Source: Myxococcota bacterium
GTDB taxonomy: Bacteria; Myxococcota_A; Polyangia; Polyangiales; Houyiibacteriaceae
DNA length: 64,000 bases
Assembly (NCBI GenBank): GCA_039177115.1
Contig: JBCDFZ010000015.1
Location: 10,193 to 74,192, forward strand
Direction: 5' to 3'
Each line of letters starts with the position of its first letter. Position 1 is the stretch's first letter. The translations under genes were made by a program, and so were the position numbers. The notes under the pieces were generated by a model. That model did not search any database and was not told where the DNA came from. It saw only the letters and a list, made by a program, of their open reading frames with translations. Of this stretch, positions 44,450 through 61,087 are shown in pieces.

Positions 44450-44962
44450 ATGAACACGCGTGCGCTCTTCGGACTCGCGCTGCTCGTGGTGGGCTGCGCT
44501 GGCGGTAGCGGTATCGAGACGGCTTGTCCGAGTGGCCGGGTGGCGCTGTGCGACAATCCTTCTGATACACTGGCCTGCTGCCAGGAATTCAAGTGTGACG
44601 ACGGGCGTATCGTTCCTTGTTCGAGCCTCGCGCGGGCGGAGTGTCAAACGCAGGTGTGTGACCGCGTGGTCGACTTCGACCCCACCATGCCTGGCACCGG
44701 GGGCACCGGCGGCGGCATGTCGGGGACGGGCGGCATGGGCGCAACCGGGGGCGACCCGGGGCCTGGCGGCACGGGCGGCACTGGCGGCACGGGCGGCGTA
44801 GGCGGCACGGGCGGTGCCGGGGGTGCAGGCGGGGTCGGCGGCGCAGGAGGCGTGGGCGGTGTCGGCGGCGTGGGTGGAACTGGCGGCGCCGGTGGCGTCG
44901 GCGGCACCGGTGGTGCAGGCGGCGTAGGCGGCTCGGGCGGGGCCGCTGGCGCATCCACGTAG
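44450..44962 (+). CDS. lipoprotein with Cys-rich domain and long (GGX)n tail
   Basis: The lipobox is LLVVGC. There are eight Cys in residues ~26-70, followed by ~90 residues of GGT/GGV/GGA triplets. Confidence 0.65.
   Translation: MNTRALFGLALLVVGCAGGSGIETACPSGRVALCDNPSDTLACCQEFKCDDGRIVPCSSLARAECQTQVCDRVVDFDPTMPGTGGTGGGMSGTGGMGATGGDPGPGGTGGTGGTGGVGGTGGAGGAGGVGGAGGVGGVGGVGGTGGAGGVGGTGGAGGVGGSGGAAGAST
44684..44959 (+). repeat. in-frame GGN-GGC-NNN tandem repeats encoding (GGX)n
   Basis: Visible 9-nt periodicity (ggcggcacg / ggcggcgtg / ggtgcaggc ...) within the CDS above. Confidence 0.7.
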
Positions 44963-48793: not shown

Positions 48794-49681
48794 ATGCGGT
48801 GGATGGTATTGTGCATTTTCCTAGCTTTCGGGGGCTTCGCCTGCGAGCGGTCCACCGGCGCCGATAGTGGCGGCATCACCCCGCCCTCCGCCGAGCAGCC
48901 GCTGCCTGCCAATGCCGGCGAGCCCATCGAAGACCTTCCTCAGGTCGACACCAAGTCGCTCGACGAGTTCTCAAAGGGGATCTGGCGCGACATGGTCAAC
49001 GAGCTCCTGTCCCCTTGCGGGGATCCGGTCAGCGTCGCGCGCTGCGTGGCCGAAGGTCGAAAGTGCAAGCGATGCGTCCCTGCGGCGCGGTACGTCGCTC
49101 GCCTGGTCGACGAAGGCTACGCCCGCGACGAGATCCGGGACATCTATCGGGTCCGATACGACGAGGGCACCAAGGTCGAGATCAGCGCGAAGGGGTCTCC
49201 TCTCCGAGGTTCGCCGATGGCGCCCGTCACCATTTACGAGTTTAGCGACTTCCAGTGCCCCCACTGCCGCCTCGCAGCGCCGTACCTCAAGCAGGTGGTC
49301 GACGGCTCGAACGGCAAGGTCAAAGTCGTGTTCATGCAGTACCCGCTGCCAGGGCATCCGAAGGCGCGCGAAGCCGCGGCCGCGACCATTGCCGCCGACA
49401 AGCAGGGCAAGTTCTGGGAGATGCACGACCTGATCTTCTTGAACCAGGACAAGCTGGGCGGCGTGAACTTCGACGACTACGCGAAGAAGCTCGGGCTCGA
49501 CGTCAAACGCTTCCAAGCCGACATGAAGTCCGACGAGACGGAGGCGAAAATCAAAGCCGACCGCGCAGAGGGCAAGAAAGCCGGCGTCGACTCGACGCCG
49601 AGCATCTACGTGAACGACCGACGTTTCATTTTCCCACCAGACAAGCTGGACGCGTACGTCCGTGAAGAACTCGGTCAGTAA
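48794..49681 (+). CDS. DsbA-family thiol:disulfide oxidoreductase (secreted)
   Basis: It has a signal peptide, a thioredoxin-fold active site FSDFQCPHCR, and a C-terminal GVDSTPSIYVN. Confidence 0.85.
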   Translation: MRWMVLCIFLAFGGFACERSTGADSGGITPPSAEQPLPANAGEPIEDLPQVDTKSLDEFSKGIWRDMVNELLSPCGDPVSVARCVAEGRKCKRCVPAARYVARLVDEGYARDEIRDIYRVRYDEGTKVEISAKGSPLRGSPMAPVTIYEFSDFQCPHCRLAAPYLKQVVDGSNGKVKVVFMQYPLPGHPKAREAAAATIAADKQGKFWEMHDLIFLNQDKLGGVNFDDYAKKLGLDVKRFQADMKSDETEAKIKADRAEGKKAGVDSTPSIYVNDRRFIFPPDKLDAYVREELGQ

Positions 49682-50165
49682 GTTCGCGGTCCTCGTGGTG
49701 CTGCTGTCGCTCTCGATGGCGACCATGGCCCATGCCCTCGCGCCCGGGGATACCCCGCCAGCTATCAACCTGCCCGACCAGTCGGGGGAGCAGGTCGACC
49801 TCAACGCTCTTCGCGGCAAGGTCGTGCTGGTCGACTTCTGGGCATCGTGGTGTGGCCCCTGCAAGCAAGAGATGCCGATCCTCGAAGCGCTGCACAAAAA
49901 GTACGAACCTCAGGGCCTGGTCATCGTCGGCGTCAACATCGACAACCAGGAAAAGAAGATGGCCAACTTCCTCAAGGCGCACCCCGTCACCTTCCGTCAG
50001 GTCCGCGACAAGAAACTCAAAGTCGCCTCCCGGTACAAACCCCCCACCATGCCCACCACCTTCCTCATCGGCCGGGACGGCAAGCTCCGCATGATCCACG
50101 AAGGATTCAACAAGAAGGACGCCGCGAAGATCGAGGCGGAAGTGAAGAAGGCGTTGGCGGAGTAG
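49662..50165 (+). CDS. TlpA/ResA-like periplasmic thiol-disulfide oxidoreductase
   Basis: GTG start overlaps the DsbA-like gene by 20 nt. It has a signal peptide and the active site DFWASWCGPCKQEMP. Confidence 0.85.
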   Translation: MKNSVSKFAVLVVLLSLSMATMAHALAPGDTPPAINLPDQSGEQVDLNALRGKVVLVDFWASWCGPCKQEMPILEALHKKYEPQGLVIVGVNIDNQEKKMANFLKAHPVTFRQVRDKKLKVASRYKPPTMPTTFLIGRDGKLRMIHEGFNKKDAAKIEAEVKKALAE

Positions 50166-50266
50166 GGGGCTCCATCGACGACGGCGAGCCGGTGACTCGC
50201 ACGCTGTCGATCCCCAGCGGACTGCGAGGCATCGCACAGAGGGGTCGCTATCTGGCGCAAGACGTG

Positions 50267-50374
50267 CACGTTGGCAGACGGGCGTTGACCGAGAACCGGG
50301 GATCCGGTTTCATCGAGGTTCCTTGGTATGGCGTCTCGATCCTCGCCTTCCCTCTGTCGTGCTCTCTCGATTCG
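50267..50374 (+). repeat. island repeat copy E (diverged; contains a ~60-nt insert)
   Basis: cacgTTGGCAGACGGGcg and, further on, cgccttccctctgtcgtgctctctcgattcg align to copies A and B (cgccttcccctcgagagcttctctaatctcgg). It ends 12 nt before ATG 50386. Confidence 0.45.
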
Positions 50375-50385
50375 ATTGTCTTGTC

Positions 50386-50970
50386 ATGAACCTTAGAACC
50401 TGCCTTGGTTTGCTTCTCCTGCTGCCGCTCTCCTTCGCCTGCGACGACAACCGTGCCTGTGTCGATTCGACCGAGTGTGAGGACGGTTCGGCGTGCGTGT
50501 CTTCCGTGGTGTTGGGCACATGCCTCCCGCTCTGCGACTCCCAGTCGGCTTGCGAAGGAGCAGACTTCTGTCTGCCTCGAGTCGAAGAGGCTCCCACGGT
50601 CGTACTCGAGTGGCCCGACGTGTGCGTCCCACCCGAGATGCTGGACTTCAATGAGCCGCCCACCGGTTGTGACGCGCGGGGGGTGGACGACTGCGACGTG
50701 GACGGCGAGTGTTCTCTCGGCAGGGGCTGGCGCATCGACCGTACGGAACGATGCCTGGAACGTGTCGGTGCTGGGTGTCTCCCCCTGAACACGGCCTGCG
50801 CTGACGGCACTGTTCTCACTCACAATACAGAAGGGGAGCTCATCTGGTTCAGCTCCCGATGCGGACCCTACGGCTTTGCGCCCCTCGATGATCTAGCACC
50901 GGGTGATCCGCTCTACGAAGAGCTGTATGGCGGGGAAGTGAGTTTTCAGACTTGGCCGGAGTGCGAGTGA
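50386..50970 (+). CDS. Cys-rich lipoprotein
   Basis: ATG 50386 lies inside track ORF 50323..50970. The lipobox is LSFAC. There are ~20 Cys in 195 aa. Confidence 0.6.
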   Translation: MNLRTCLGLLLLLPLSFACDDNRACVDSTECEDGSACVSSVVLGTCLPLCDSQSACEGADFCLPRVEEAPTVVLEWPDVCVPPEMLDFNEPPTGCDARGVDDCDVDGECSLGRGWRIDRTERCLERVGAGCLPLNTACADGTVLTHNTEGELIWFSSRCGPYGFAPLDDLAPGDPLYEELYGGEVSFQTWPECE

Positions 50971-51107
50971 GACCGGGAGACGGAGGGCTCTCCGCCAAGA
51001 GCCGGAACGCTCACCGCTCGAGCCAAACTCGTGGGGGTGCTGCCGAAAGACCTGAAATGCGCCGGCGATCCCCGTCGAGTCCCATTCCTGTTTACTATGC
51101 TCACAGC

Positions 51108-51521
51108 ATGAAGTGGATCTTTTGCCTGGTGTTGCTTGTCACCACGATGTCGGCATCGGCGCAAGACCCGACTGCTGCAACCAACGAGCTTCCACCTGCG
51201 ACTCTCGAAGAGCACGAGGCACAGCAGAGGAATCGATTGCTCGCGTATCCGCCTCGTTGTGAGGCGTTCGTGTCGAGGGCAGCGCCGCTTGCAGGTGTCA
51301 TCGTTGGCCCGACCCTCTCTTTGGCGGGGACGGGTGTCGCCTTGTTTGGAAGTGGCGAACGAGCGGACGGTTCCTTGACGGGCAAGGGAAAAGGGCTAGT
51401 CGCCGCGGGCTCGCTCATGGCAGTAACGGGGTTGATCGTCGCTGTGGTCAGCGGAGACAAACTCAAGGAAAGAAACCAGGCCAGGCGCAAGCAGACGTTC
51501 TCTGGCTGCCCACCTTACTAA
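51108..51521 (+). CDS. secreted/membrane-anchored hypothetical protein
   Basis: ATG 51108 lies inside track ORF 50952..51521. It has a signal peptide (MKWIFCLVLLVTTMSASA) and Gly/Ala-rich hydrophobic segments. Confidence 0.5.
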   Translation: MKWIFCLVLLVTTMSASAQDPTAATNELPPATLEEHEAQQRNRLLAYPPRCEAFVSRAAPLAGVIVGPTLSLAGTGVALFGSGERADGSLTGKGKGLVAAGSLMAVTGLIVAVVSGDKLKERNQARRKQTFSGCPPY

Positions 51522-51524
51522 GAG

Positions 51525-51667
51525 CTATCGACGGCTCCCGGAGCGCGGTTGGACTGGCGCCACCCCCGGCACCTCACTCACCCGAACCAATCGGTGGGAA
51601 GGTCCCGCGCGCGCGAAACGCTATCGAGTGGCCCTACCGTCGAGCGCAGCATGCTCGGACAGGTTGC
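51525..51667 (+). repeat. island repeat copy D (degenerate hairpin + conserved block + motif variant)
   Basis: ggcgccacccccggcacctcactcacccgaacc aligns to ttccgccaccccaggcacctcgctcactcgaaccc of copies B and C. tgCTCGGACAGGTTGC (51652-51667) matches ttGTCGGACAGGTTGC at 53879. Confidence 0.5.
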
Positions 51668-51832
51668 TGTCTGCCTCGCTGGCGGAAGCCCCAACCCAAT
51701 GAACGGACCCAAGCCAGGGTTCCAGACCATGAACATCGGTGTTACCGTTAATCAGTACTTGCGTTACCAAGACCACAAGACTCAACACTACTACTCGATG
51801 CCCATATCGGTGACCCTCGTCCTGGTAAAGCA

Positions 51833-52312
51833 GTGAAGCGCCGTCTCGTTTCCTTCTGCGTAGTTTCCGCGTTGCTTGCGAATGCATGCGGGGACTCCTC
51901 CGACGGCCCTGTTGTCCTCGCTGTGACCGACGAGGACTGCAGGGCGCTGCCTCCTGAGGAATGTCAACTCAGCAGCCTGTTCCTCTTCTACAAGACGGGC
52001 TTCTGGCCTGCGGATGACGCAGAACGCGACGGGTTTGCTTGCCAACTTACGCAAGGCTTCTTGTACAATCCAGAGGAGGATTGCGTGGACGAGCGTACGG
52101 TCAGTGAACCAGTGTGCCAACTCGACGTGTTCTCTGGTACGTACTCAATCTATAGGGGCCCAGACGGAAGACTCTGGGAGTTTGGTCCCCCGATGAAGAC
52201 GCCGCCGGTCGAAGGATGGACTTTCCACGCACTGCCCGACAGCGTCCGACCCGACCGACTCGCCATTTACCCAAACCCTCGATGTGCTCAGTACGGCGTC
52301 CCGCTGAGGTGA
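51833..52312 (+). CDS. lipoprotein, unknown function
   Basis: GTG start. The lipobox is LLANAC. 159 aa with 8 Cys. Confidence 0.55.
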   Translation: MKRRLVSFCVVSALLANACGDSSDGPVVLAVTDEDCRALPPEECQLSSLFLFYKTGFWPADDAERDGFACQLTQGFLYNPEEDCVDERTVSEPVCQLDVFSGTYSIYRGPDGRLWEFGPPMKTPPVEGWTFHALPDSVRPDRLAIYPNPRCAQYGVPLR

Positions 52313-52434
52313 GCGCGTAGAGCTCAACAAGACAGTGGTACGCTCGCGCGGGTATGAGTGAGAGCACGACCGGTTCGGCCAGGCCGGTAAAATGAATAAC
52401 GTATGGGCTTGCGGGGGTCGTTGTAGCCGGGTGG

Positions 52435-52722
52435 TTGGGGCTGCTCTCGTTGTACTTTCGTGGTGCTTTGATTTGGGGCCACTTGCCTCGAGGCGGCCGG
52501 GAGGACCCTAAGGATGTGGGAGAGGGCCTGCACTACACGCTGGCCGGTTACTCGGCTGCAACTATGGCGATCGGAACGCTTGTAATCTTCGCAGTCCTCG
52601 CCGCTTTCGCGGCGCTGGAACACAAGGGCGCACAGTCCGCAAAGATCGCAGCGTTTTTGTTGGCCGTCCTATCCGTCGCGGCGACGTTCGGGAGCCCAGT
52701 CGTGGGTTGGTACTTGGATTGA
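52435..52722 (+). CDS. small 2-TM membrane protein (start uncertain)
   Basis: 95-aa track ORF with a TTG start; an alternative start is ATG 52564. Two clear hydrophobic helices are present (MAIGTLVIFAVLAAFAAL, IAAFLLAVLSVAATFG). Confidence 0.4.
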   Translation: MGLLSLYFRGALIWGHLPRGGREDPKDVGEGLHYTLAGYSAATMAIGTLVIFAVLAAFAALEHKGAQSAKIAAFLLAVLSVAATFGSPVVGWYLD

Positions 52723-52842
52723 TGCGATAGGACGACGCATAGAGCCCCTCGTCGCGCCGACGAGAAGGACCGGTCGTGGCGCCTTCGACCGCCGACAAGC
52801 TCGATGGCCCGAGAGAATGCCTGGGCCCGTCGCGGGGACCGT

Positions 52843-53316
52843 TCACGATTCTGGCTGGATGCCTGAAAGAAGGCGACTCAGTCGTCCCACGTGTACCCAT
52901 CGCGATGGAATCGGATTGTCCCAAAGGAACACGAACACAGGGGGATCGCCGTCTTCATTGAGATCTATCGCCACGAGCACGTCATCTCCGGGCATTACGG
53001 ATCCTCCGATGAACAGGGCATCGTCAAAGACCAGGCGCGTATCATCGGAACCATTGAGGTCGTCGACAGTGCGGACCATGCAGAACGCGGCGTCAGCGAT
53101 CCAGCCGGCCACGTCGACCTGCCTAGCCACGGACCGCATACTCTTGAGGTCCTTGAACAGTCTCAGATCGTCCAACTCAGGAATGCGGAACAGCGATCGC
53201 AGAGCGTCCGGACCTGGGTTCCTCCACTCCCCTGATTCGATGGCTTGACGTAGCTGCTTTGGAACTCTGCTTCCCATCCGGTTGAACGCCGCTTTCGCCC
53301 TCGTCATTGCCACCAT
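52843..53316 (-). CDS. SUKH/SMI1-KNR4-like protein (putative immunity-type protein)
   Basis: 157-aa ORF. Its overall pattern resembles SMI1/KNR4 (SUKH) proteins: ...DDALFIGGSVMPGDDVLVAIDLNEDGDPPVFVFLWDNPIPSRWVHVGRLSRLL. This is judged by eye only. Confidence 0.45.
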   Translation of the reverse strand: MVAMTRAKAAFNRMGSRVPKQLRQAIESGEWRNPGPDALRSLFRIPELDDLRLFKDLKSMRSVARQVDVAGWIADAAFCMVRTVDDLNGSDDTRLVFDDALFIGGSVMPGDDVLVAIDLNEDGDPPVFVFLWDNPIPSRWVHVGRLSRLLSGIQPES

Positions 53317-53326
53317 ACCACGGGCA

Positions 53327-53405
53327 ACGCAGAACCCATGTTGCCAGACGGGCCCCGCGCCTTCCCCTCGAGAGCTTCTCTAATCTCGGCCCTTGGGGCC
53401 GGCAT
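53327..53405 (+). repeat. island repeat copy A (motif + imperfect hairpin, truncated)
   Basis: acgcagaacccatgTTGCCAGACGGGccccgcgccttcccctcgagagcttctctaatctcggcccttggggccggcatt aligns base-for-base with the left part of copy B. Confidence 0.6.
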
Positions 53406-53466
53406 TTTGTAACGGGAGGCCAACGCACAAGTTCGCTTGCTCGGACCGTGACCCTACGTTTCGAGA

Positions 53467-53865
53467 ATGGCGCGGGATCCACAACGGTACCTTCTCATGC
53501 CGAGTGTGACGATATGTGCGCTGGTCAGCTTCCTCGTGTGGGTGAACGCTTGGGAGTGGCTAGTTTCTCCGCCAGCGGAGGGGCGCCCTTTCACGATCCT
53601 GATCTGCGGGGCTTTCTGGGGCGGTCTTGCGTCAGCCCCGGGCTATATACGCGGCGCAAGACTGGTGGCCACGAACCGAGCTGCGAACGCCGCCGAGCGC
53701 GCCTGGGTGCTTTCGAGCGTAAGCGCGGCGCTACTGGTCTGCTTGGTCGGCGGCATCATGACACTGACTACGATTGTCTTCGGGTTCTTGGGACTGGCTT
53801 CGGCAGGTTCGGCGACGCGACTGCTCGTGGATCTCCTACGGGCTCAGCGGTCCGCCAGCGGGTGA
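53467..53865 (+). CDS. small 4-TM membrane protein
   Basis: 132-aa ORF with four hydrophobic segments. Confidence 0.55.
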   Translation: MARDPQRYLLMPSVTICALVSFLVWVNAWEWLVSPPAEGRPFTILICGAFWGGLASAPGYIRGARLVATNRAANAAERAWVLSSVSAALLVCLVGGIMTLTTIVFGFLGLASAGSATRLLVDLLRAQRSASG

Positions 53866-53915
53866 CGTCCAATACCCCTTGTCGGACAGGTTGCGATATC
53901 CGAGCATCGTCCGAG

Positions 53916-54338
53916 ATGGGCTGGGATCGGCTTCTGACGCTCGCGTACGTCGCATTGGCCGTGGCGATTGTCGCGAGCTTGACCGCATCGATCTGGACGA
54001 CGCTGTGGTGCCGTCGAAACCGACCGCTTCCGACAACGGTCCGCGTGGCTGTCGCGCTGTCAGCTCTCGGAGCCCTTCCGGGACTAGGGTTCGCTGTCTA
54101 CGCTGCCGTGGGTTGCATCCGGTGGGCGGCGGGATCCGCGGTCGAACCCGTGTACGACAGCCCGACCACTCCGATTGCCGTCCTTTGGCTATTCGTCGGA
54201 CCGTTCCTCTTGGTGACGGGGTGGGCACTGAACCACAGCGCAGGCGCACCGCCCGGCGGTGGTTGGGTTCACGCGAGCCACGCGGCCGTTTGTCTCTCTG
54301 GCGGCTTGGCGGCATTGATTGCGGCGCTGTTCGTCTAA
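53916..54338 (+). CDS. small 4-TM membrane protein
   Basis: ATG 53916 is the tail of track ORF 53307..54338. 140 aa with four hydrophobic segments. Confidence 0.55.
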   Translation: MGWDRLLTLAYVALAVAIVASLTASIWTTLWCRRNRPLPTTVRVAVALSALGALPGLGFAVYAAVGCIRWAAGSAVEPVYDSPTTPIAVLWLFVGPFLLVTGWALNHSAGAPPGGGWVHASHAAVCLSGGLAALIAALFV

Positions 54339-54379
54339 CGCACGTTGACTGTCGGAGGAGTTTCCCTAGTCGGGCAGTC

Positions 54380-54709
54380 CTACTCGTATGCTCGGCCCAC
54401 ATGGGCCACGACGTCGTCAGCATTGTACAGCACGTCCGCCATTGGAAACCCGACGAAGTGATATGTCACGCAGGTTCCCGCAGGTCTCTCAGCTGTGATG
54501 GGCCGGCAGACGGAATCTGAGGTCGATGGCAAGCAGGACTCGACCCCTTCGCGTTGCAGAGTCTGCGAGGGGTGGGAGCCGAGGCAGCGTTCCCACTCGT
54601 GACCGAGAAACACGTACAGGCCATGCCCGACCACGACGCAGAGGGCGAGGGTCATCCCCGCGATGACCGCGCCCCGGGTCGCTAGCCGTAGCAGTGCTCG
54701 ATTTCGCAT
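54380..54709 (-). CDS. small N-terminally anchored protein
   Basis: 109-aa ORF with one TM helix (GAVIAGMTLALCVVVGHGLYVFL), followed by a Cys-containing soluble part. Confidence 0.4.
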   Translation of the reverse strand: MRNRALLRLATRGAVIAGMTLALCVVVGHGLYVFLGHEWERCLGSHPSQTLQREGVESCLPSTSDSVCRPITAERPAGTCVTYHFVGFPMADVLYNADDVVAHVGRAYE

Positions 54710-54920
54710 ATCGGAAATTTACCCAGGCTTCACCGTACCACCTCCGATGCGGAAAGCTGATCGGTGTGACCGCGAGTCCGTTCGCCGGACGACGCCGGTC
54801 GCCTGGCGGGATCGGGTGAGCGTCGCCGAACCCATCGAAAACGCATGCCGTGTCCGCTATCTCCGACGACGGCAACAGTTCCACTCCGGAGTACTTAGGA
54901 TCGTACTCCAGACTCAGCGG

Positions 54921-55092
54921 ACGCAGAACCCGTGTCTCAGACGGACCCCCGCCTTCCGCCCGAGGGCTTCTCTAATCTCGGCCCCTGGGGCCGAGATTAG
55001 CCTTCCGCCACCCCAGGCACCTCGCTCACTCGAACCCGTCCGTGCCGCTTCCACCCGATGCTCGCGAGCCAAGTCCCTGGCAGCACACTCGG
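54921..55092 (+). repeat. island repeat copy B (motif variant + perfect hairpin + 63-bp block identical to copy C)
   Basis: The hairpin is AATCTCGGCC-cctgg-GGCCGAGATT (54974-54998). Nt 54996-55058 are identical to 58609-58671, and similarity continues to ~55092 and ~58705. Confidence 0.8.
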
Positions 55093-55142
55093 ACGTCGTC
55101 GTCGGCATAGCGCCACAGCAGTCAATTTGGCAGATTCCGCCC

Positions 55143-55604
55143 ATGGTCCCCGATCGTTCGCCAGAACAGCGCGTGCCCATCAGGAACGGAGCCTTACGCG
55201 ACGTGGACGCGCTTCTCGCGCTAGATTCGGTTGCCCGGATGGATGCACAACGCCGGACGCAGATTCGTAAATGGATCAGCGAAGGTCAGACGCTCGTCGC
55301 GCATCATGATGGGCGAATCGTCGGCTATGGAGTCGTCGAGCATTCATTCTTTGGGCGAGCATTCATCGCGATGCTGTATGTCGACCCCAGCGAGCGTCGG
55401 CGGGGGCTAGGCACGAGAATCGTGGAGCATCTGGAGCAGCGGGCAGAGAGCCCACGGGTATTCACCTCAACGAATCAATCGAACGTACCCATGCAACGAC
55501 TACTCGAGCGCATCGGTTACGAACGGTCTGGAAGTATCGAGAACTTGGATCCGGGCGCCCCTGAGTTGGTGTATTCGAAGCCCAAGGTGATTCGGTCGGA
55601 GTAG
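55143..55604 (+). CDS. GNAT family N-acetyltransferase
   Basis: ATG 55143 lies inside track ORF 54663..55604. The acetyl-CoA-binding motif is LYVDPSERRRGLGTRIVEHLEQRA (Q/RxxGxG/A). Confidence 0.8.
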   Translation: MVPDRSPEQRVPIRNGALRDVDALLALDSVARMDAQRRTQIRKWISEGQTLVAHHDGRIVGYGVVEHSFFGRAFIAMLYVDPSERRRGLGTRIVEHLEQRAESPRVFTSTNQSNVPMQRLLERIGYERSGSIENLDPGAPELVYSKPKVIRSE

Positions 55605-55956
55605 CTCGCGACTAGGACTGGCCGAGTCGCTCAAATCCCTCTGCCGGACCGACGATTGGCCTTGAGCCCCCTCGCGTTCGATTCCCTTGGGTCCGGCATG
55701 GCCGCTCCCCAACGCCTCCTAGGCGAGAGTCGAACAGTCCGAGACCGAAAGATCTGGCCGCCACCCTTCGCTGGGGCAACGTGGTCTGCATGTTGATGGA
55801 GCGGGGCGTTCAAGGACGGTTGTCGGACGGGCGAGCCGAACAATCGAGGAGCTGCAGCGCGAGGTGCAATGCCTCTGCGGGATGTACATCGCGGCTGTTC
55901 TTGAGGCCGAGCTTCGGCTTTGGCTCCGGTTCGACGCGGAGCAGCGTCGCGGTCGC

Positions 55957-56811
55957 CTATGGCACGGTTTCGTAGTTTTCGCCCAGCCCCTGATAGGGAC
56001 CCTGACCGACGTCGATCTGCAAGGGTGTCCGAACGGTCAGGCCGGCGCTTGTTTCGACTCGAAGGGAAGTGGTGCCAGGCTTTACGGGCCAGACGAAGGG
56101 TGTCTTGCCTTCGTGACGCTCCGGTTCGACATTCCAGAACGAATCCGATGTCATTTTCGGCGGGCCAATCAACTCGATGAACTCCGCAGGTCCTGGGGCT
56201 TCGAGCGTCCACACCAAATGTGTGAGGATCTCTTTGCCTTCGGCATCGGATAGGCGGAGCTCGAACATGGCAGCGATAACACCGACGCTTCCTGGCTCGC
56301 GAAGCACGGCCGTATCTCCGAATCGGTCTTCGGGGATCACGATCGCGTCGTCGGCGATCCAAGGACGATAGGCTAGTGCGACCGATACGGGTGCAGCGAC
56401 GTGAACCGGAAACCGCCGGACCGCCCCTGCGTCCGCCGTGATGATCAGCTCGGCCTCTCCTTCCGCCATCGCTCGCATCGTGAACCAGGTGTCGTAGTCC
56501 GTCTCGCCCCCACTCTGTCCAACATCACGTTCTTCGATCGATTCGAGTTGGAGAATCGTCTGGTCGCTCGATTCCAAGGTCACCGAGCCGACGACGACTT
56601 TGGCCAGCACGAACCCGCCGAGCTCCAACGTCGGCGGCTCCAGTTCCGAAGACCATTGACCAATCGTCTCGCCTCTGCGATCGAGCACTTTGACCACTTG
56701 CCCCCACGTTCCGTCGGGGAGCCCCCCATCGGGCGGCGAGCTTGGCTCATCGTCGCAGCCGACGAGAGTCAGGTTCCACAACAAGACCCAACACACTACG
56801 ACCTGTCGCAT
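55957..56811 (-). CDS. lipoprotein, unknown function
   Basis: ATG 56811 is preceded by GAGAGAGG. The lipobox is LTLVGC. 284 aa, likely beta-rich. Confidence 0.6.
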   Translation of the reverse strand: MRQVVVCWVLLWNLTLVGCDDEPSSPPDGGLPDGTWGQVVKVLDRRGETIGQWSSELEPPTLELGGFVLAKVVVGSVTLESSDQTILQLESIEERDVGQSGGETDYDTWFTMRAMAEGEAELIITADAGAVRRFPVHVAAPVSVALAYRPWIADDAIVIPEDRFGDTAVLREPGSVGVIAAMFELRLSDAEGKEILTHLVWTLEAPGPAEFIELIGPPKMTSDSFWNVEPERHEGKTPFVWPVKPGTTSLRVETSAGLTVRTPLQIDVGQGPYQGLGENYETVP

Positions 56812-57186
56812 GGCACACCTCTCTCTAAGAAAAGACTTGGCAAGAAACAAAGCAAAGAATGGGCCAGCCGCCGACCCCGGACAAACGCTCGGCAAAGCGG
56901 CGCGCCGCAAGGCGACTCGAGATAGTCCTCCTCGGGGAAGTTCGGCGCGTACGCGAGCACATAGCTGAGGAACTCATTCAACCTCTGACCATCCTGGATC
57001 CAGTCGGGCATCCGCGCCTCAAGGTACCACGGCAGCCCGCGAACCTGAGTAGACCACGCTCGTGCAGCTAGCCGACTATGAGTGAGGTGTACAAGTTCCC
57101 CTTGTCGGACGCAGATGATGCGACGCCCCGCCATCGACAACCCACAGCGCTCGCGGGAATGGCCCTCGCCAGCAACGATTCGTGAC

Positions 57187-57588
57187 ATGAGCACGTTGCC
57201 GCGCCGCCGACTCGCCCGTCCTCGGTTGGACGCGACCGAGGACGAAACCCTCTCATTCGCCCGCGAGTGGGTCGCGCTGGCAGCCGAGCAAGGCTTCGAG
57301 GTGGCCATCTCAGAGTTCGATGAGAATCGCGAGGTCGCGTGGTCACAGGAGTTGTTCGAGGAACTCACGTTTGACCACTTTGACGATGGGCGTCAGCCCC
57401 GAATCACGGCGCCGAACGCAGTTGCGGGGCTTCGCGTCGATGCCTTCGAATACAACGATGGCTCCGGTTTCGCTGTTGACGATGACCTTGCGCTTGATGA
57501 CAAGCGCTCGGACTACACGGCTCAGTTCGATTTCAGGAAGGCCGCAGATGGGTATCGAACCGTCCTCGAAAGCATCCACGTGCTCTGA
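57187..57588 (+). CDS. acidic cytoplasmic hypothetical protein
   Basis: ATG 57187 lies inside track ORF 57082..57588. Third-codon-position GC is high. 133 aa, Asp/Glu/Phe-rich, with no signal peptide or TM helix. Confidence 0.5.
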   Translation: MSTLPRRRLARPRLDATEDETLSFAREWVALAAEQGFEVAISEFDENREVAWSQELFEELTFDHFDDGRQPRITAPNAVAGLRVDAFEYNDGSGFAVDDDLALDDKRSDYTAQFDFRKAADGYRTVLESIHVL

Positions 57589-57656
57589 ATCCGACCAGAG
57601 TGTCCGCTAAATCCGCTTGTCGGACGCACAGGTCGCCCGGGGTCCACCGTCGCGAG

Positions 57657-58172
57657 CTACTTGGCGGGCGAGCCTCGCGGAGAAGCGGACAAAGCCACCT
57701 CCCTGACATCGTTCCGCAGAGCCCTCATCTGACTTGCCCTCGTCGCGATGGATAGGAGCGGGGAGAGCCGCTCGTCTATCACTACGGAGACAGAGGCGTA
57801 CCTCCACCATGGAAGGCCCTGCTCCAGCCGGCCCCTCGTCAACGAATACAGCAGGAACGCCGCGAACAGTTCAGAGGCGTCTTCGTCCGAGAGTTCGACG
57901 AGGTCGGCGAGTCTGACGCTGTATTCGTAGTCTTGCGTCCGCGGCTTGTCGCCAACCGCCGTCAACTTCAGTGAGTCGCGAGACCTCCGGTAGCTCAGAC
58001 CACTCCCGATCTTGAGCACTTGCGAATCCTCGGTATCGAGCAACACCGAGTACTCCTCGTCGATCCAAAGAACGAACTGGTATGCGCGTTCTCGCCCCAC
58101 CGCAGGTAAGAGGGCAATCGCGACAAACACCAGGGTCACGATGAGAACGGTAAACGCGAGGGTCAAAGACAT
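57657..58172 (-). CDS. N-terminally membrane-anchored hypothetical protein
   Basis: ATG 58172 (MSLTLAFTVLIVTLVFVAIALLP) lies 8 nt after the stop of the upstream 105-aa gene. Confidence 0.5.
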   Translation of the reverse strand: MSLTLAFTVLIVTLVFVAIALLPAVGRERAYQFVLWIDEEYSVLLDTEDSQVLKIGSGLSYRRSRDSLKLTAVGDKPRTQDYEYSVRLADLVELSDEDASELFAAFLLYSLTRGRLEQGLPWWRYASVSVVIDERLSPLLSIATRASQMRALRNDVREVALSASPRGSPAK

Positions 58173-58180
58173 GCTTCGCG

Positions 58181-58498
58181 CTACGGAACGAAGTGTCTGA
58201 GCACGAAGTAGAGCGCGAACATGGCGAGGATCGGGTAAAGCAGCGGCTTCCACCTGGCGTTCGGTAAACCTTCCATCTTGTCACGCAAGCTCGTGCTTCC
58301 CTTTGCGAGCCACATGAGGAGTGCTCCCTGCCACAGTGTCGCCGTGAAAAGCAGCAACTCAACGCGATCGAGCGGGAAGCCTTGGAGGCCCCAGGACACG
58401 AAAGCTGTGGCCCCGAGGACAAGGCAAACCCAAATGAAGAGCACCGCGATCGCTGGGAGAGGCGGATGGTCCGTGGGCTGCGTCATCGGCCCGAGCAT
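58181..58498 (-). CDS. small 3-4-TM membrane protein
   Basis: 105-aa ORF that is hydrophobic throughout. Confidence 0.5.
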   Translation of the reverse strand: MLGPMTQPTDHPPLPAIAVLFIWVCLVLGATAFVSWGLQGFPLDRVELLLFTATLWQGALLMWLAKGSTSLRDKMEGLPNARWKPLLYPILAMFALYFVLRHFVP

Positions 58499-58537
58499 AC
58501 CGGCATTCGGGACTGGTTGTCTTCGTAGCCGATCCGC

Positions 58538-58705
58538 ACGACAACCCGTGTTGTCGGACGGGCCGCTTCTCCCTCGCTGCTTTGCCTATCTCGGCCCCTC
58601 GGGCCGACATTAGCCTTCCGCCACCCCAGGCACCTCGCTCACTCGAACCCGTCCGTGCCGCTTCCACCCGACTCTGGCGAGCCAAGTCCGTGGCAGCACA
58701 CCCGG
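58538..58705 (+). repeat. island repeat copy C (motif + hairpin + block); right part overlaps the 3' end of the transposase gene
   Basis: It contains TTGTCGGACGGG (58551-58562), the hairpin ATCTCGGCCC-ctc-GGGCCGACAT (58588-58610, one mismatch), and a 63-bp block identical to copy B. Confidence 0.8.
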
Positions 58706-59380
58706 CGGTGGCCCCGTCGCCTGAAGCACGTTCCTATCCCTCCGCGCTGAGCTGAACGGGTCGACCCAAGTCGCCTGCGGCTGCTTCTTTCCCAGCTTCT
58801 TCAGGTGCCGCCGCCGGTTATTCAGCACGTACGCCAGCGCATGGCGCACCTGCCGGGGCGTTCGGAGTTGCACTGCATGATACCGGTCGACGAACACGCG
58901 CCCCCGTGCTCGCCCCATTGCGCGGTTGATCCCTTTGCTCACTCGAATCGAGAGCCCCTGCATCCCCCGTGAAAGCGAACGTCGATGCGAGGCCTCCACC
59001 ACCATGTGCACATGCCCATGCTGCACCGACCAATGCAGGACCCGCATCCCGAACCGCCCCTGCGCGGCCCCAATGGCCTTCACGATGGCCCCATAGAGCC
59101 TCCCCGAACGAAGCCGCAGCCGCCGGTCCATCCGCATCGTGACGTGAACAGGCACATAGCCAGGCAGCACCGGCCGCTCATCGTGCACCACCCGATCGCT
59201 CGACTTGGGCCGCCCAGCCCCCTCGCGACGCCCCCCGTGCCGCAGCGAATCGAGATGCAGCTGCCGGTCGCGACGGCCGCGCCGACGCCTCGGCGCTTTC
59301 CCACGCGTTTGCTCGGCCCGATGCCTCCTCTGATTGGGGCGCGACATGCTTTTGAATACCGCAGATATTAAGAAAGTCAA
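58610..59380 (-). mobile_element. IS200-like / REP-associated tyrosine (Y1, HUH) transposase gene
   Basis: 256-aa ORF. VLHWSVQHGHVHMVVEA carries the HUH motif, and RVFVDRYHAVQLRTPRQVRHALAYVLNN is the Tyr-containing helix region. Both are as in TnpA(IS200)/RAYT proteins. The start may be ATG 59347. No second IS gene (tnpB) is present. Confidence 0.75.
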
Positions 59381-59685
59381 GAGGCTTTAAGCGTTTGAGA
59401 CGGGGCTTTCGGGTGAGATGAGTTCGTCTTGGGGGGGGCGGTTCCTCAGAGAGTCGACTTCATGGCTGCAAGTTCGCTCTTCAGAGCAGCTCTTGACTCT
59501 TCAAGTTCGATCGATGCCCCTTGACGCCTCCCGCGGCGCTGCAGTCGCCACGGCGCATCATCATTCCTCTAGTAGCTTCTTCTTTGCGCCGTCCGTCAAC
59601 CGAAACCACCGCGACCCGCCGCTAGCTCGATCGCGCGATACCGCTTCCTTGTCGCAGTCCCGGCTTCGCCAGTCCGTCCTTCGCG

Positions 59686-59776
59686 CCGCTTGCCCCGCGG
59701 CCCGTGAAGCGACCCTGCGGCCACAACTCGCTCAGCTGCTGCATGACGAAGTCCACGACTTCGCAGTCGGCTTCGG
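59686..59776 (-). pseudogene. decayed duplicate of the last ~30 codons of the adjacent GAF-domain gene
   Basis: Nt 59686-59776 align to 59794-59885 with roughly 85% identity by eye. The relic reads PEADCEVVDFVMQQLSEL versus TEADCEIVDYVTQQLSEF in the intact gene, and the frames then diverge. Confidence 0.6.
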
Positions 59777-59797
59777 GTTGATCGGGTTGCTTGCCGC

Positions 59798-61087
59798 TTA
59801 CCCTGCCGCCCGTGACGCCGCCCCGCGCGCCACGAACTCGCTCAGCTGCTGCGTGACGTAGTCCACGATTTCGCAGTCGGCTTCGGTGAACATGCCTGCG
59901 GTGACTCCGTTGGCGAGTTGCAGCAAGCCAAACAATCGCCCTCGATGCACGAGTGGTCGGTAGAGGAGGGCGCGTACGTCTAGGCCTGGGACGCCGTCAA
60001 CGTCTTCTCGGAAGCGTGGGTCTTTTTGGGCTTGGGCCAGGACCAAGACTGCGTGTTCGGCGAGGCTGCTGGCTGCGGAGAGGAGGCCTGCCGTCGACGG
60101 GAAGGCTTTGCCTTTTCGGCCATGGGCGCCGATGCCGCGGGCGGCGACGACGCGGAACTCGTCGGTGTTGATGTCGAGGAGGAAGGCTGCGCTGGCCTCG
60201 GAGGGGACCAGCTCTTCAAACAGGTGGACGGCGAACTCGAGGGCTTCGGCTCGGTTCCTCAGGAACAGGAGGTCTTGGCAGGCCTCGAACGCGGCGGAGA
60301 GTCGATCTTCGGTGCCGGGAGCGGAGACGCTGCTGACGGCGGGCTCTCCTCGGGCGTCGTCCTCGAGCGGGAAATCGATGTCGATGCTCTTGTTCCAGTC
60401 TTTCCACTCGACGCGGACGACCGGGGGGCGCTCTGGCTTTCCCTGCCACACGTGATTGAAGAGCTCGATGCGGATGAACTTGGCGCCGTCCCGGGCCTCG
60501 ACGTCTTTTTGGGCGTCGCGCAGCAGCTTGGTCGCGAGTTTCTCGGCGACTCCCGCCTCGATGGGCCCTGGAACCGCATACATGCGCTCACGAAAATGAA
60601 GCGGTGTTTGCTCGGACGGATCCTCTTCGCGCGTGGCGACCAGGACAAGCTTCTTCGAAAGCTCCGGCGGCGGCGGGCGACTCGAAGGGGGCGGCGCGGA
60701 GGGAGGCGGCCTCGAGGGAGCGCGCTCCGGGGGACGACTCGACGTCAGGGGAATCGGGTTGGCGATCGCTGCGCGTCGCGCTTCAGACGGGGCGACCGAT
60801 CGAATCTCAGGGCGGCTGGGTACGGGGCGCTTGGTGCCAGGCGGGGCTTGCGGCGCGCTTGCCGGCGCGAGCTGGTAGCGACGTCGTTCCCGGGCGTCCT
60901 GGATCATCACGATGCCGTTGGGACTCACGTTGCAGCTCGCACCCGCGGGCACGCCGCCGCTTTCGCCGAGCTCCTTGCGGACGGCCTGCAGGGCCGCAAG
61001 CCACGTCGGTGCCTCGACTGTACCTTCGTACAGCGAGCTCGACGCGCCGAGCGCGGTGATCAGGACTTTCCAATGCTTCACGGCCAC
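59798..61087 (-). CDS. GAF domain-containing protein
   Basis: 429-aa ORF with a Pro-rich central linker. The C-terminal ~160 aa look GAF-like (...LLDINTDEFRVVAARG...VLVLAQAQKDPRF...ALLYRPLVHRGRLFGLLQLAN). Confidence 0.65.
   Translation of the reverse strand: MAVKHWKVLITALGASSSLYEGTVEAPTWLAALQAVRKELGESGGVPAGASCNVSPNGIVMIQDARERRRYQLAPASAPQAPPGTKRPVPSRPEIRSVAPSEARRAAIANPIPLTSSRPPERAPSRPPPSAPPPSSRPPPPELSKKLVLVATREEDPSEQTPLHFRERMYAVPGPIEAGVAEKLATKLLRDAQKDVEARDGAKFIRIELFNHVWQGKPERPPVVRVEWKDWNKSIDIDFPLEDDARGEPAVSSVSAPGTEDRLSAAFEACQDLLFLRNRAEALEFAVHLFEELVPSEASAAFLLDINTDEFRVVAARGIGAHGRKGKAFPSTAGLLSAASSLAEHAVLVLAQAQKDPRFREDVDGVPGLDVRALLYRPLVHRGRLFGLLQLANGVTAGMFTEADCEIVDYVTQQLSEFVARGAASRAAG

Follow-up and report, generated by a model that had tools for sequence, protein, structure and literature searches.

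The island described here lies in a 64,000-nucleotide (nt) stretch of DNA from a Myxococcota bacterium (assembly GCA_039177115.1, contig JBCDFZ010000015.1, positions 10,193 to 74,192), to which we refer as the window. It is a variable region of ~9.6 kb (50166..59797) between two convergent core genes, a tlpA-like gene (49662-50165) and a GAF gene (59798-61087), and it holds 13 small cargo genes together with one Y1 transposase gene (58610-59347, minus strand). Its intergenic DNA contains a hairpin-bearing repeat, which the initial annotation of the window had read either as a local system of repetitive extragenic palindromes (REPs) with a REP-associated tyrosine transposase (RAYT), or as serial decayed insertions that may have assembled a cassette array. 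The best explanation of this repeat is that it represents displaced copies of one composite junction, made up of the last ~30 codons of the transposase gene, a palindrome abutting the stop codon, a spacer of ~30 nt and a short oriented core sequence.

The island and its position in relatives

The cargo genes encode lipoproteins, membrane proteins and one GNAT acetyltransferase. Pfam matches were obtained for this acetyltransferase and for the transposase (Y1_Tnp), and for none of the other 12 of the 14 island genes. No paralogy was found among the 13 cargo genes, which are all mutually unrelated, and domain searches of the island proteins revealed no tyrosine or serine recombinase. The coding signature of the island genes is normal, with a GC content at third codon positions of 0.65-0.77 in the cargo genes against 0.77-0.87 in the flanking genes. 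An Rfam scan of the region from 48 to 61 kb at E<=1 gave no match. A tRNA gene as the integration target was considered and rejected, as the sole tRNA sits at 5.7 kb.

On each side of the island, ~10 kb consists of core genes that are syntenic in relatives. In the related loci, referred to here by number, the GAF and tlpA-like genes are also convergent neighbours, overlapping or 13-70 nt apart in L016, L017 and L019. The gap between them is thus 0-70 nt in these three loci, 1.0 kb in L018, 2.1 kb in L014 and 9.6 kb in the window. The L014 gap contains genes for a GNAT protein (72% identical to that of the island), an HxlR-like regulator and a glyoxalase, while the L018 gap contains a DUF805 gene and a decayed copy of this transposase with an internal deletion, placed and oriented beside the GAF gene as in the window. 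Since the L018 copy occupies the same place, the transposase is old at this site and it is the DNA on its 3' side that varies. The locus is a hypervariable spot, an integration hot spot between conserved genes.

Two features of the sequences around this site were recorded separately. Within the variable region of L014 (L014:13200-13340) there is a run of N with an identical 55-nt sequence on both sides, which has the look of a scaffolding artefact, so that the content of that locus is incompletely known. In the window, DNA of 110 nt is duplicated in tandem (1.9 copies, 87% matches) across the GAF gene's 3' end (59685-59886). Its downstream duplicate (59685-59794) is a pseudo-tail with TTG in place of the stop codon TTA, and a 52-nt core of this duplicate (59725-59776) shows 94% identity both to the real gene and to L014. 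Comparison of the repeat modules with the GAF 3' end or with the empty sites gave no significant homology.

The hairpin-bearing modules

The initial annotation had listed five same-orientation copies of the repeat, A to E, each with a hairpin. This proved correct for A, B and C, which have core, spacer and palindrome in common, with a core-to-palindrome distance of 28-33 nt and a shared block of 56 nt that includes the hairpin; D consists of a decayed palindrome and a transposase relic, and E shows only a 17-nt core match and weak similarity. The motif TTGnCnGACGG, said to occur in all copies, is missing from the left of D and reads TCTCAGACGG in B. The hairpin arms measure 10 nt with one mismatch in C and are perfect over 14 bp in B.

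All five modules read on the plus strand. Module C (58534..58705) comprises a pre-core, the core TTGTCGGAC (58551-58559), a 28-nt spacer, the palindrome (58588-58610) and the last 31 codons of the intact transposase gene. As had been proposed, it therefore encodes the C terminus of the transposase, and its palindrome abuts the stop codon (ORF, open reading frame, ending at 58610). Module B (54921..55094) has the core TCTCAGAC (54935-54942), a spacer, a perfect palindrome (54972-55000, with arms at 54972-54985 and 54987-55000), a transposase 3' relic and the junction CTCGGAC (55088-55094); the relic is 92 nt long (55000-55092) and corresponds to amino acids (aa) 218-248 of the transposase at 87% identity. 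Module A (53327..53466) carries the core TTGCCAGAC (53341-53349), a spacer, an imperfect palindrome (53383-53405, three mismatches) followed by a T-rich tail, and ~50 nt of a decayed transposase 3' relic which, to the right of the palindrome, runs into the start of the next plus-strand gene (53467).

Module D (51522..51662) begins right after the stop codon (51521) of the upstream ORF. It comprises a decayed palindrome (~51525-51548), a decayed transposase 3' relic with 10 identical aa at 51558-51587, and a GCAGCA..CTCGGAC junction as in B (CTCGGAC at 51654-51660; z=12.7 in alignment with B). D is heavily substituted, yet aligns with B or C at z ~11-13. Module E (50267..50385) is weak. Its core TTGGCAGAC (50271-50279) lies in a 17-nt match to the core of A, with 15/17 identical (z 3.4, but p ~0.1 under a second scoring); a possible decayed core and spacer are found at ~50331-50353, and the spacer similarity is weak and non-significant (p 0.1-0.15). 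The two-gene block c1-c2 (50386-51521) is bracketed exactly by E, as a left-module remnant, and by the palindrome and relic of D, a position that suggests insertion into a single older module, at the left foot of that module's palindrome.

Modules B (54966-55092) and C (58579-58705) align over 127 nt with 91% identity, and the 63-nt identity already reported between them was confirmed as the maximal exact run (54996-55058 and 58609-58671). B is chimeric, switching at the palindrome from an A-like left part (84% identity, against 50% to C) to a C-like right part (94% identity). Further homology breakpoints lie at palindrome feet, on the right side of A and the left side of D. B and D both break off at one transposase position, each with CTCGGAC, beyond which they have nothing in common and lead into unrelated cargo. 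The break in homology between B and C coincides with a near-match to the core, CCCGGCGG, in the intact transposase gene; this gene has an internal CACACCCGGCGG site.

When the 64 kb were searched with the transposase by tblastn, B matched aa 218-248, D matched aa 237-246, and 5' fragments were found nowhere, so that only 3' ends are repeated. The C-terminal peptide PRTWLA.VGWKRHG.VRV.EVPG is also encoded by relatives, which means that the relics are native transposase sequence, and copy B had been rightly suspected of being the relic of a transposase 3' end. Since the island copies share homologous flanks which include this coding sequence, they are duplicates by descent and not independent REP insertions, and the suggestion that B might be a mobilised REP-like unit can be set aside. 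With distance from the gene the modules form a decay series in which C is intact, B is 94% identical, A and D are decayed and E is vestigial. This series of transposase 3' ends, together with the hypervariability of the locus seen by synteny, supports the other suggestion, that serial decayed insertions may have assembled the cassette array.

The palindrome ATCTCGGCCCCTGGGGCCGAGAT occurs within the 64 kb only at A, B and C (0 expected; 0 in the other 54 kb), and repeat and palindrome scans of the window agree with the earlier statement that no copy lies outside the island. Within it the palindromes are single and in direct orientation, with the foot CTAATCTC and no GTAG or CGTC foot. The predicted closing of C by an 8-nt pairing also held in the folding run: CGGACGGG (58555-58562) is complementary to CCCGTCCG (58648-58655), the two are paired in both the minimum free energy and the centroid folds of both strands, and B has a shifted equivalent. 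The long-range fold of C has a z of about -2 to -3, with the palindrome supplying most of the signal. The left module (core and spacer) had no significant match in 35 palindrome-bearing loci of other genomes or in any of the synteny loci.

An oriented core motif at gene junctions

The core has the consensus TTGYCRGAC, is 9-11 nt long and in most cases has GG directly after it. The exact form TTGTCGGAC was found five times, at 53879, 55820, 57102, 57617 and 58551, against 0.79 expected and a maximum of 3 in shuffles; all five lie on the plus strand, in intergenic DNA and within 4.7 kb of the island's length, with none in the rest of the window (54 kb). Besides that of module C these are solo cores. 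The one at 53879..53887 lies between two plus-strand ORFs and has CGGACAGGTTGC in common with the D junction, that at 55820..55828 has GTTGTCGGACGGGC in common with the core of module C, and that at 57102..57110 has CTTGTCGGACGCA in common with the exact core at 57617..57625. A core-like TTTGAGACG on the plus strand at 59394..59402, just past the transposase promoter, is weak evidence, being a short motif; GAGACG stands at the equivalent place in L167 and L018. When the variants at A, B, E, the B/D junctions and the transposase 5' flank are included, a core is present in nearly every intergenic gap, and always on the plus strand, irrespective of which way the adjacent genes run. Left-hand and right-hand flanks of the cores are combined in various ways (CCCC/AGGTTG, CCCC/GCA, CATG/AGGTTG and CGTG/GGGC), which is the expected product of a crossover within the core.

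The cores are plain oriented sequences and not hairpins. Folding of 12 junction regions was no better than that of shuffles (z -1.35 to +1.29), and this comparison led us to reject the inverted hairpin partners picked out by eye for the cores, such as CGACAACccgtGTTGTCG. Position weight matrix and k-mer scans of the relatives' loci for the core or an analogous repeated motif gave nothing above background. A variant, TCGGRYAGGTT, near two related transposases was taken as chance, since it also occurs inside the tlpA coding sequence, and at least 120 singleton matches of the 14-nt core GTTGTCGGACGGGC in viral contigs were all consistent with chance.

The transposase and its family

The RAYT-like Y1 (HUH) transposase (58610..59347, minus strand) has 245 aa from the ATG at 59347, with HUH residues H112/H114 and catalytic tyrosine Y173, and matches Pfam Y1_Tnp with E=1.3e-7. 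None of these residues, which are H115/H117/Y176 by the numbering of the 248-aa query, varies among 32 homologues, and the protein is a genuine Y1 enzyme of the HUH/Tyr kind. The protein scored 34.8 bits with the curated equivalog for REP-associated tyrosine transposases, NCBIfam REP_Tyr_transpos (NF047646), under the cut-off of 80. A single-sequence search of the PDB returned only spurious ankyrin matches and a profile search was required. The family profile matched 4er8 (E. coli TnpA-REP) with E=0.008, from the HUH motif through the tyrosine helix, and ISDra2 TnpA with E=0.03. The core of the AlphaFold model has a predicted local distance difference test score (pLDDT) >90, and in Foldseek 4er8 ranked first (20% identity over 143 columns), with the TnpA proteins of insertion sequences (ISs) close behind (IS608, ISDra2 and IS200; 9-14% over 104 columns). 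TnpA-REP, the nearest solved structure, is therefore closer than IS200 TnpA in both profile and structure matches, with small margins. The protein has a disordered Arg-rich N-terminal extension as well as a C-terminal one.

The family is large (1723 matches) and chromosomal, with no matches on plasmids or viral contigs. One genome, GCA_039197175.1, has at least 4 paralogues on four contigs, each 80-84% identical to the query. By blastn, family copies had 73-85% identical DNA in the ORF and in a promoter-like block of ~45 nt, and no similarity beyond these. This block, at 59348..59385 on the minus strand in the window, consists of TTGAC-N17-TATTCA with a small hairpin, AATATCtgcGGTATT, between the hexamers. 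It stands upstream of every family copy, also in L001, L004, L013, L167, L168 and L018, is the sole conserved non-coding DNA of the family and could be an operator. Searches around the transposase found neither terminal inverted repeats of the kind associated with tyrosine transposases (TIRYT type) nor, on its 5' side, a partner palindrome, inverted or direct. Only one GC-rich palindrome, on the 3' side, is thus present at the gene, and the small AT-rich promoter hairpin is unrelated to it.

The palindrome in other genomes

An exact-pattern scan found the palindrome at 8 loci of GTDB representative genomes, most of them Myxococcota or 'delta' metagenome-assembled genomes (MAGs), and at 27 metagenome loci, with at most 3 exact copies in any one GTDB representative genome and none in viral contigs. 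Within each locus it is always single. The initial annotation had suggested looking for the hairpin beside RAYT genes in the genomes of relatives; no Y1 gene was present near the palindrome in any of these other loci, at least 35 in number. Elsewhere the palindrome has several recurrent flank contexts, and it recurs at gene boundaries in related genomes. Conversely, it is absent from the flanks of the related transposases in 6/6 relatives (L001, L004, L013, L167, L168 and L018). At its stop codon, the transposase homologue of L168 has another palindrome, and the other five are without any. Since there are palindrome loci without Y1, Y1 relatives without the palindrome, and another palindrome in L168 and L019, gene-end palindromes look like a habit of the lineage and not a signature of the Y1 gene.

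Several further observations were made on these palindromes. The exact 23-nt form was seen in at least 35 marine or sediment Myxococcota-like loci, L005-L012 and L140-L166 (for example L007:7895-7918, L161:3726-3746 and L145:2399-2419). At ~10 of the loci it overlaps the ATG of a gene of ~280 aa with, as judged by eye, a DUF1016-like N-terminal region and an SNase-like domain. Hexanucleotide runs, (GCTGAC/GCTGGC)n, adjoin it in several unrelated loci (L011:4225-4300, L141:2400-2480 and L144), and in L011 and L144 a conserved sequence ending in GCAGCTTTTTTGACGC lies on its other side. The palindrome of L168 (L168:1236-1262) belongs to a second family, AAAAGGGGAC[A/T]GTCCCCTTTT, which is found in L019 (L019:3228-3308) as an inverted doublet in an otherwise empty tlpA/GAF junction and looks like a bidirectional terminator. 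Outside the island, the window contains at 44693-44953 a repeat with a 9-nt period (GGCNNCGGC), whose in-frame translation would give a Gly-rich repeat protein segment.

Discussion

For the architecture, homology relations, core orientation and enrichment, and hypervariability observed at this locus, we propose a model of accretion in which cassettes are added directionally beside the transposase gene while its old 3' end, palindrome and core are displaced. New DNA would be added repeatedly on the transposase-proximal side, each addition joining at a core-like site ~90-130 nt upstream of the transposase stop codon and regenerating an intact gene, so that the previous 3' end, palindrome, core and cargo would be pushed away from it. 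The solo cores would represent junctions between gene cassettes inside each block. Since an oriented 9-14-nt sequence is reused, identical junctions carry different cargo and core flanks are reassorted, joining specifically at the core site would be favoured over random microhomology. The Y1 enzyme would do the joining with the palindrome as its binding element. It is the sole candidate enzyme in the island, and known Y1 HUH relatives bind hairpins and cut and rejoin single-stranded DNA at a set distance. We hold the accretion model as a whole tentatively, at a little short of an even chance, and roughly half of that attaches to catalysis by the Y1 HUH protein through the palindrome. Rather improbable in our judgement is its most specific form, in which the enzyme would anchor an integron-like platform where single-stranded cassettes are captured at the core TTGTCGGAC near or within its own 3' end, guided by the palindrome, with the tail swapped at each capture.

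A number of observations count against accretion of this kind. The evidence is confined to a single locus of a single metagenome-assembled genome. On the plus strand of the island intergenic DNA, degenerate cores are enriched (9 against 2.0 expected with one pattern and 6 against 0.5 with another, compared with 3 and 0 on the minus strand), but these patterns were picked after the motif had been seen and the p-values are nominal. In contrast to the ends of known Y1 elements, no hairpin adjoins the solo cores, and neither core, palindrome nor repeated junction is present beside the transposases of the six relatives. The palindrome occurs at 35 other loci without a nearby Y1 gene and may be a lineage-wide intergenic or terminator-like element. 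Furthermore, in L014 variable genes occupy the same hot spot without a transposase.

The last of these points fits with an explanation that needs no dedicated enzyme, and which we regard as unlikely but a serious contender. Homology-facilitated illegitimate recombination, anchored in the GAF or transposase gene and with its other end at GC-rich microhomology, would have been followed by duplication and gene conversion, the core being a recurrent microhomology or a motif of some other function. The 63-nt identity and the chimeric structure of B would fit gene conversion between nearby repeats, the adjacent 110-nt duplication of the GAF 3' end shows that local duplication has been active, and the transposase relatives lack associated sites. 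Microhomology would not, however, be expected to reuse the same 9-14-nt sequence in one orientation at least 5 times, nor to give B and D the same junction at the same transposase position with different cargo, nor to reassort the left and right flank types of the core. Such reassortment would suit a conventional recombinase encoded elsewhere, which could have acted on integrase-less, cis-mobilisable cassettes so that they accreted in tandem, as in integrons and CALINs (clusters of attC sites lacking integron-integrases) or in the staphylococcal cassette chromosome (SCC), with the transposase 3' end as the attachment target. There are same-orientation short direct repeats at every junction, the array grows beside the 3' end of a conserved gene, and the cassettes are small, unrelated and mostly of hypothetical genes. 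Against this stand the lack of a tyrosine or serine recombinase in the island with ~10 kb of syntenic core genes on each side, the lack of an RYYYAAC/GTTRRRY pair, solo-core folds with z ~0, and a core that is non-palindromic, unlike a classical recombinase core site, and we consider the explanation improbable.

If the Y1 protein were the mobile agent itself, module C would be an IS of the IS200/IS605 type, and A, B and D would be non-autonomous derivatives, similar to palindrome-associated transposable elements (PATEs) or miniature inverted-repeat transposable elements (MITEs), inserted 3' of a TTGTCGGAC-like target. The Y1 fold with HUH and Tyr, the core ~30 nt 5' of the hairpin on the plus strand resembling a left-end cleavage site, the single orientation of all copies and the core-like GAGAC at the other end of the gene unit are all in keeping with this. 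It is nevertheless very unlikely, since the other end lacks a matching subterminal hairpin, the homologues share only the ORF and the 45-nt promoter and are ~80% identical paralogues, not a multi-copy IS, the protein, at 245 aa, is extended at both its N and C termini, family members were not found on plasmids or viral contigs, and the left module is found nowhere else. A REP/RAYT or REPIN system, with the palindrome as the cognate REP dispersed by the adjacent RAYT, has been largely refuted and has only the slightest probability. The nearest structure is that of TnpA-REP, a palindrome abuts the stop codon here and a different one does so in L168, the latter as an inverted doublet in L019, and the palindrome recurs at gene boundaries in related genomes. 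The palindrome is however one-sided and without a GTAG/CGTC foot, has 0 copies in the other 54 kb or beside the six relatives and at most 3 exact copies per GTDB representative genome, no Y1 gene lies near any of its 35 other copies, a palindrome is missing from 5/6 transposase relatives, the multi-copy gene family is represented by at least 4 paralogues in a single genome, and the island copies share their non-palindrome flanks by descent. A genome-wide REP system is therefore not supported, and the local REP/RAYT-like system first suggested is not sustained. Equally slight is the chance that the modules are regulatory elements of the island genes, whether 5' untranslated region (5'-UTR) elements, operators or terminators. 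A core lies at most 175 nt upstream of 7/8 plus-strand genes, and the palindrome is where a terminator of the transposase gene would be, the A hairpin having a T-rich tail. The 5'-UTR role that had been envisaged is made unlikely by the constant orientation of the motif whatever that of the neighbouring genes; four cores have only minus-strand genes after them, no conserved -10 element or structure accompanies the core, there was no Rfam match, and the repeated relics of transposase coding sequence would be left unexplained.

Comparison with known systems helps to place the transposase and the array. In REP/RAYT systems, a TnpA-REP protein is reportedly associated with REPs or REPINs (Nunvar 2010, Ton-Hoang 2012, Bertels & Rainey 2011/2017). 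The likeness here lies in the Y1 HUH protein nearest to TnpA-REP, the GC-rich palindrome beside the gene and the chromosomal family that is not IS-like. A classical REP is an imperfect palindrome with a GTAG/CGTC foot, often in inverted doublets, whereas the palindrome of the island is footless and one-sided, occurs as single direct copies, is perfect in B, low in copy number and unlinked to the gene family elsewhere; the gene family is itself multi-copy and the local copies are duplicates including coding sequence. Of six REP/RAYT features tested, one (the protein fold) was found and four were absent; for the sixth, high repetition of the palindrome across the genome, the counts were 0 in the remaining 54 kb of the window and no more than 3 exact copies in any GTDB representative genome. 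REP/RAYT classifications are available (PMC6006769, PMC5581495). In having no cognate REP, the transposase is similar to those class 2 subclasses of TnpA-Y1 that lack REPs, such as 2.1 and 2.3 (PMC6006769), and not the classical RAYTs, which are single-copy and flanked by abundant 16-mers (PMC5581495). With IS200/IS605 elements the locus shares Y1 chemistry, an orientation-specific arrangement and a short sequence at a fixed distance 5' of a hairpin; it differs in having no matching subterminal hairpin pair, no near-identical copies with conserved ends, a larger protein and mostly hairpin-free cores.

The array itself recalls integrons and CALINs in its small unrelated genes, same-orientation sites, growth proximal to an anchor gene and reassorting site halves. 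IntI and attI are not required for a CALIN. Here, however, there is no IntI, the cores are 9-11 nt and non-palindromic in place of attC hairpins of 57-141 nt with RYYYAAC/GTTRRRY, and the anchor gene encodes an HUH enzyme with the array at its 3' end. A reading of the sites as attC was rejected on the lack of RYYYAAC/GTTRRRY boxes and long hairpins, as judged by motif and by folding of the junction regions. Composite SCC islands at rlmH, and integrative and conjugative elements (ICEs) with their cis-mobilisable relatives (CIMEs), are generally known to stack at a conserved gene end with short direct repeats that include the end of the target gene, and to have their older elements displaced distally and often free of recombinase. 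The piece repeated in the island is longer (~90 nt of coding sequence plus palindrome and spacer), the target is a transposase gene and a recombinase of the serine or tyrosine type is lacking. Displaced 3'-end ('orphan') modules of Rhs and contact-dependent inhibition (CDI) loci, where 3' fragments of one gene are generally known to precede successive cargo blocks, and 'minimal mobile elements' or integration hot spots, where conserved flanking genes enclose different contents in relatives, are also similar; they differ in that the gene repeated here is a transposase, not a toxin, and that an oriented junction motif marks the cassette boundaries. By analogy, the logic of the island would most resemble tandem accretion at a gene 3' end, as in SCC, combined with the displaced 3'-end modules of polymorphic toxin loci.

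It is unusual to find a RAYT-like gene without REPs at a hot spot of accessory genes, combined with directional scars of its 3' end and with an oriented junction motif, and a search of the literature turned up no account of a cassette array anchored by an HUH enzyme. REP-less domesticated Y1 transposases are widespread. If the Y1 platform is real, it would be a cassette-array system based on HUH chemistry and not on a tyrosine recombinase. If the Y1 enzyme makes the joins, this would provide a role for REP-less Y1 families and, in addition to integrons, a second way of building cassette arrays, by a different mechanism. If the enzyme is not responsible, the island would still be a clear worked example of a hot spot between convergent core genes which grows by proximal addition and distal decay.

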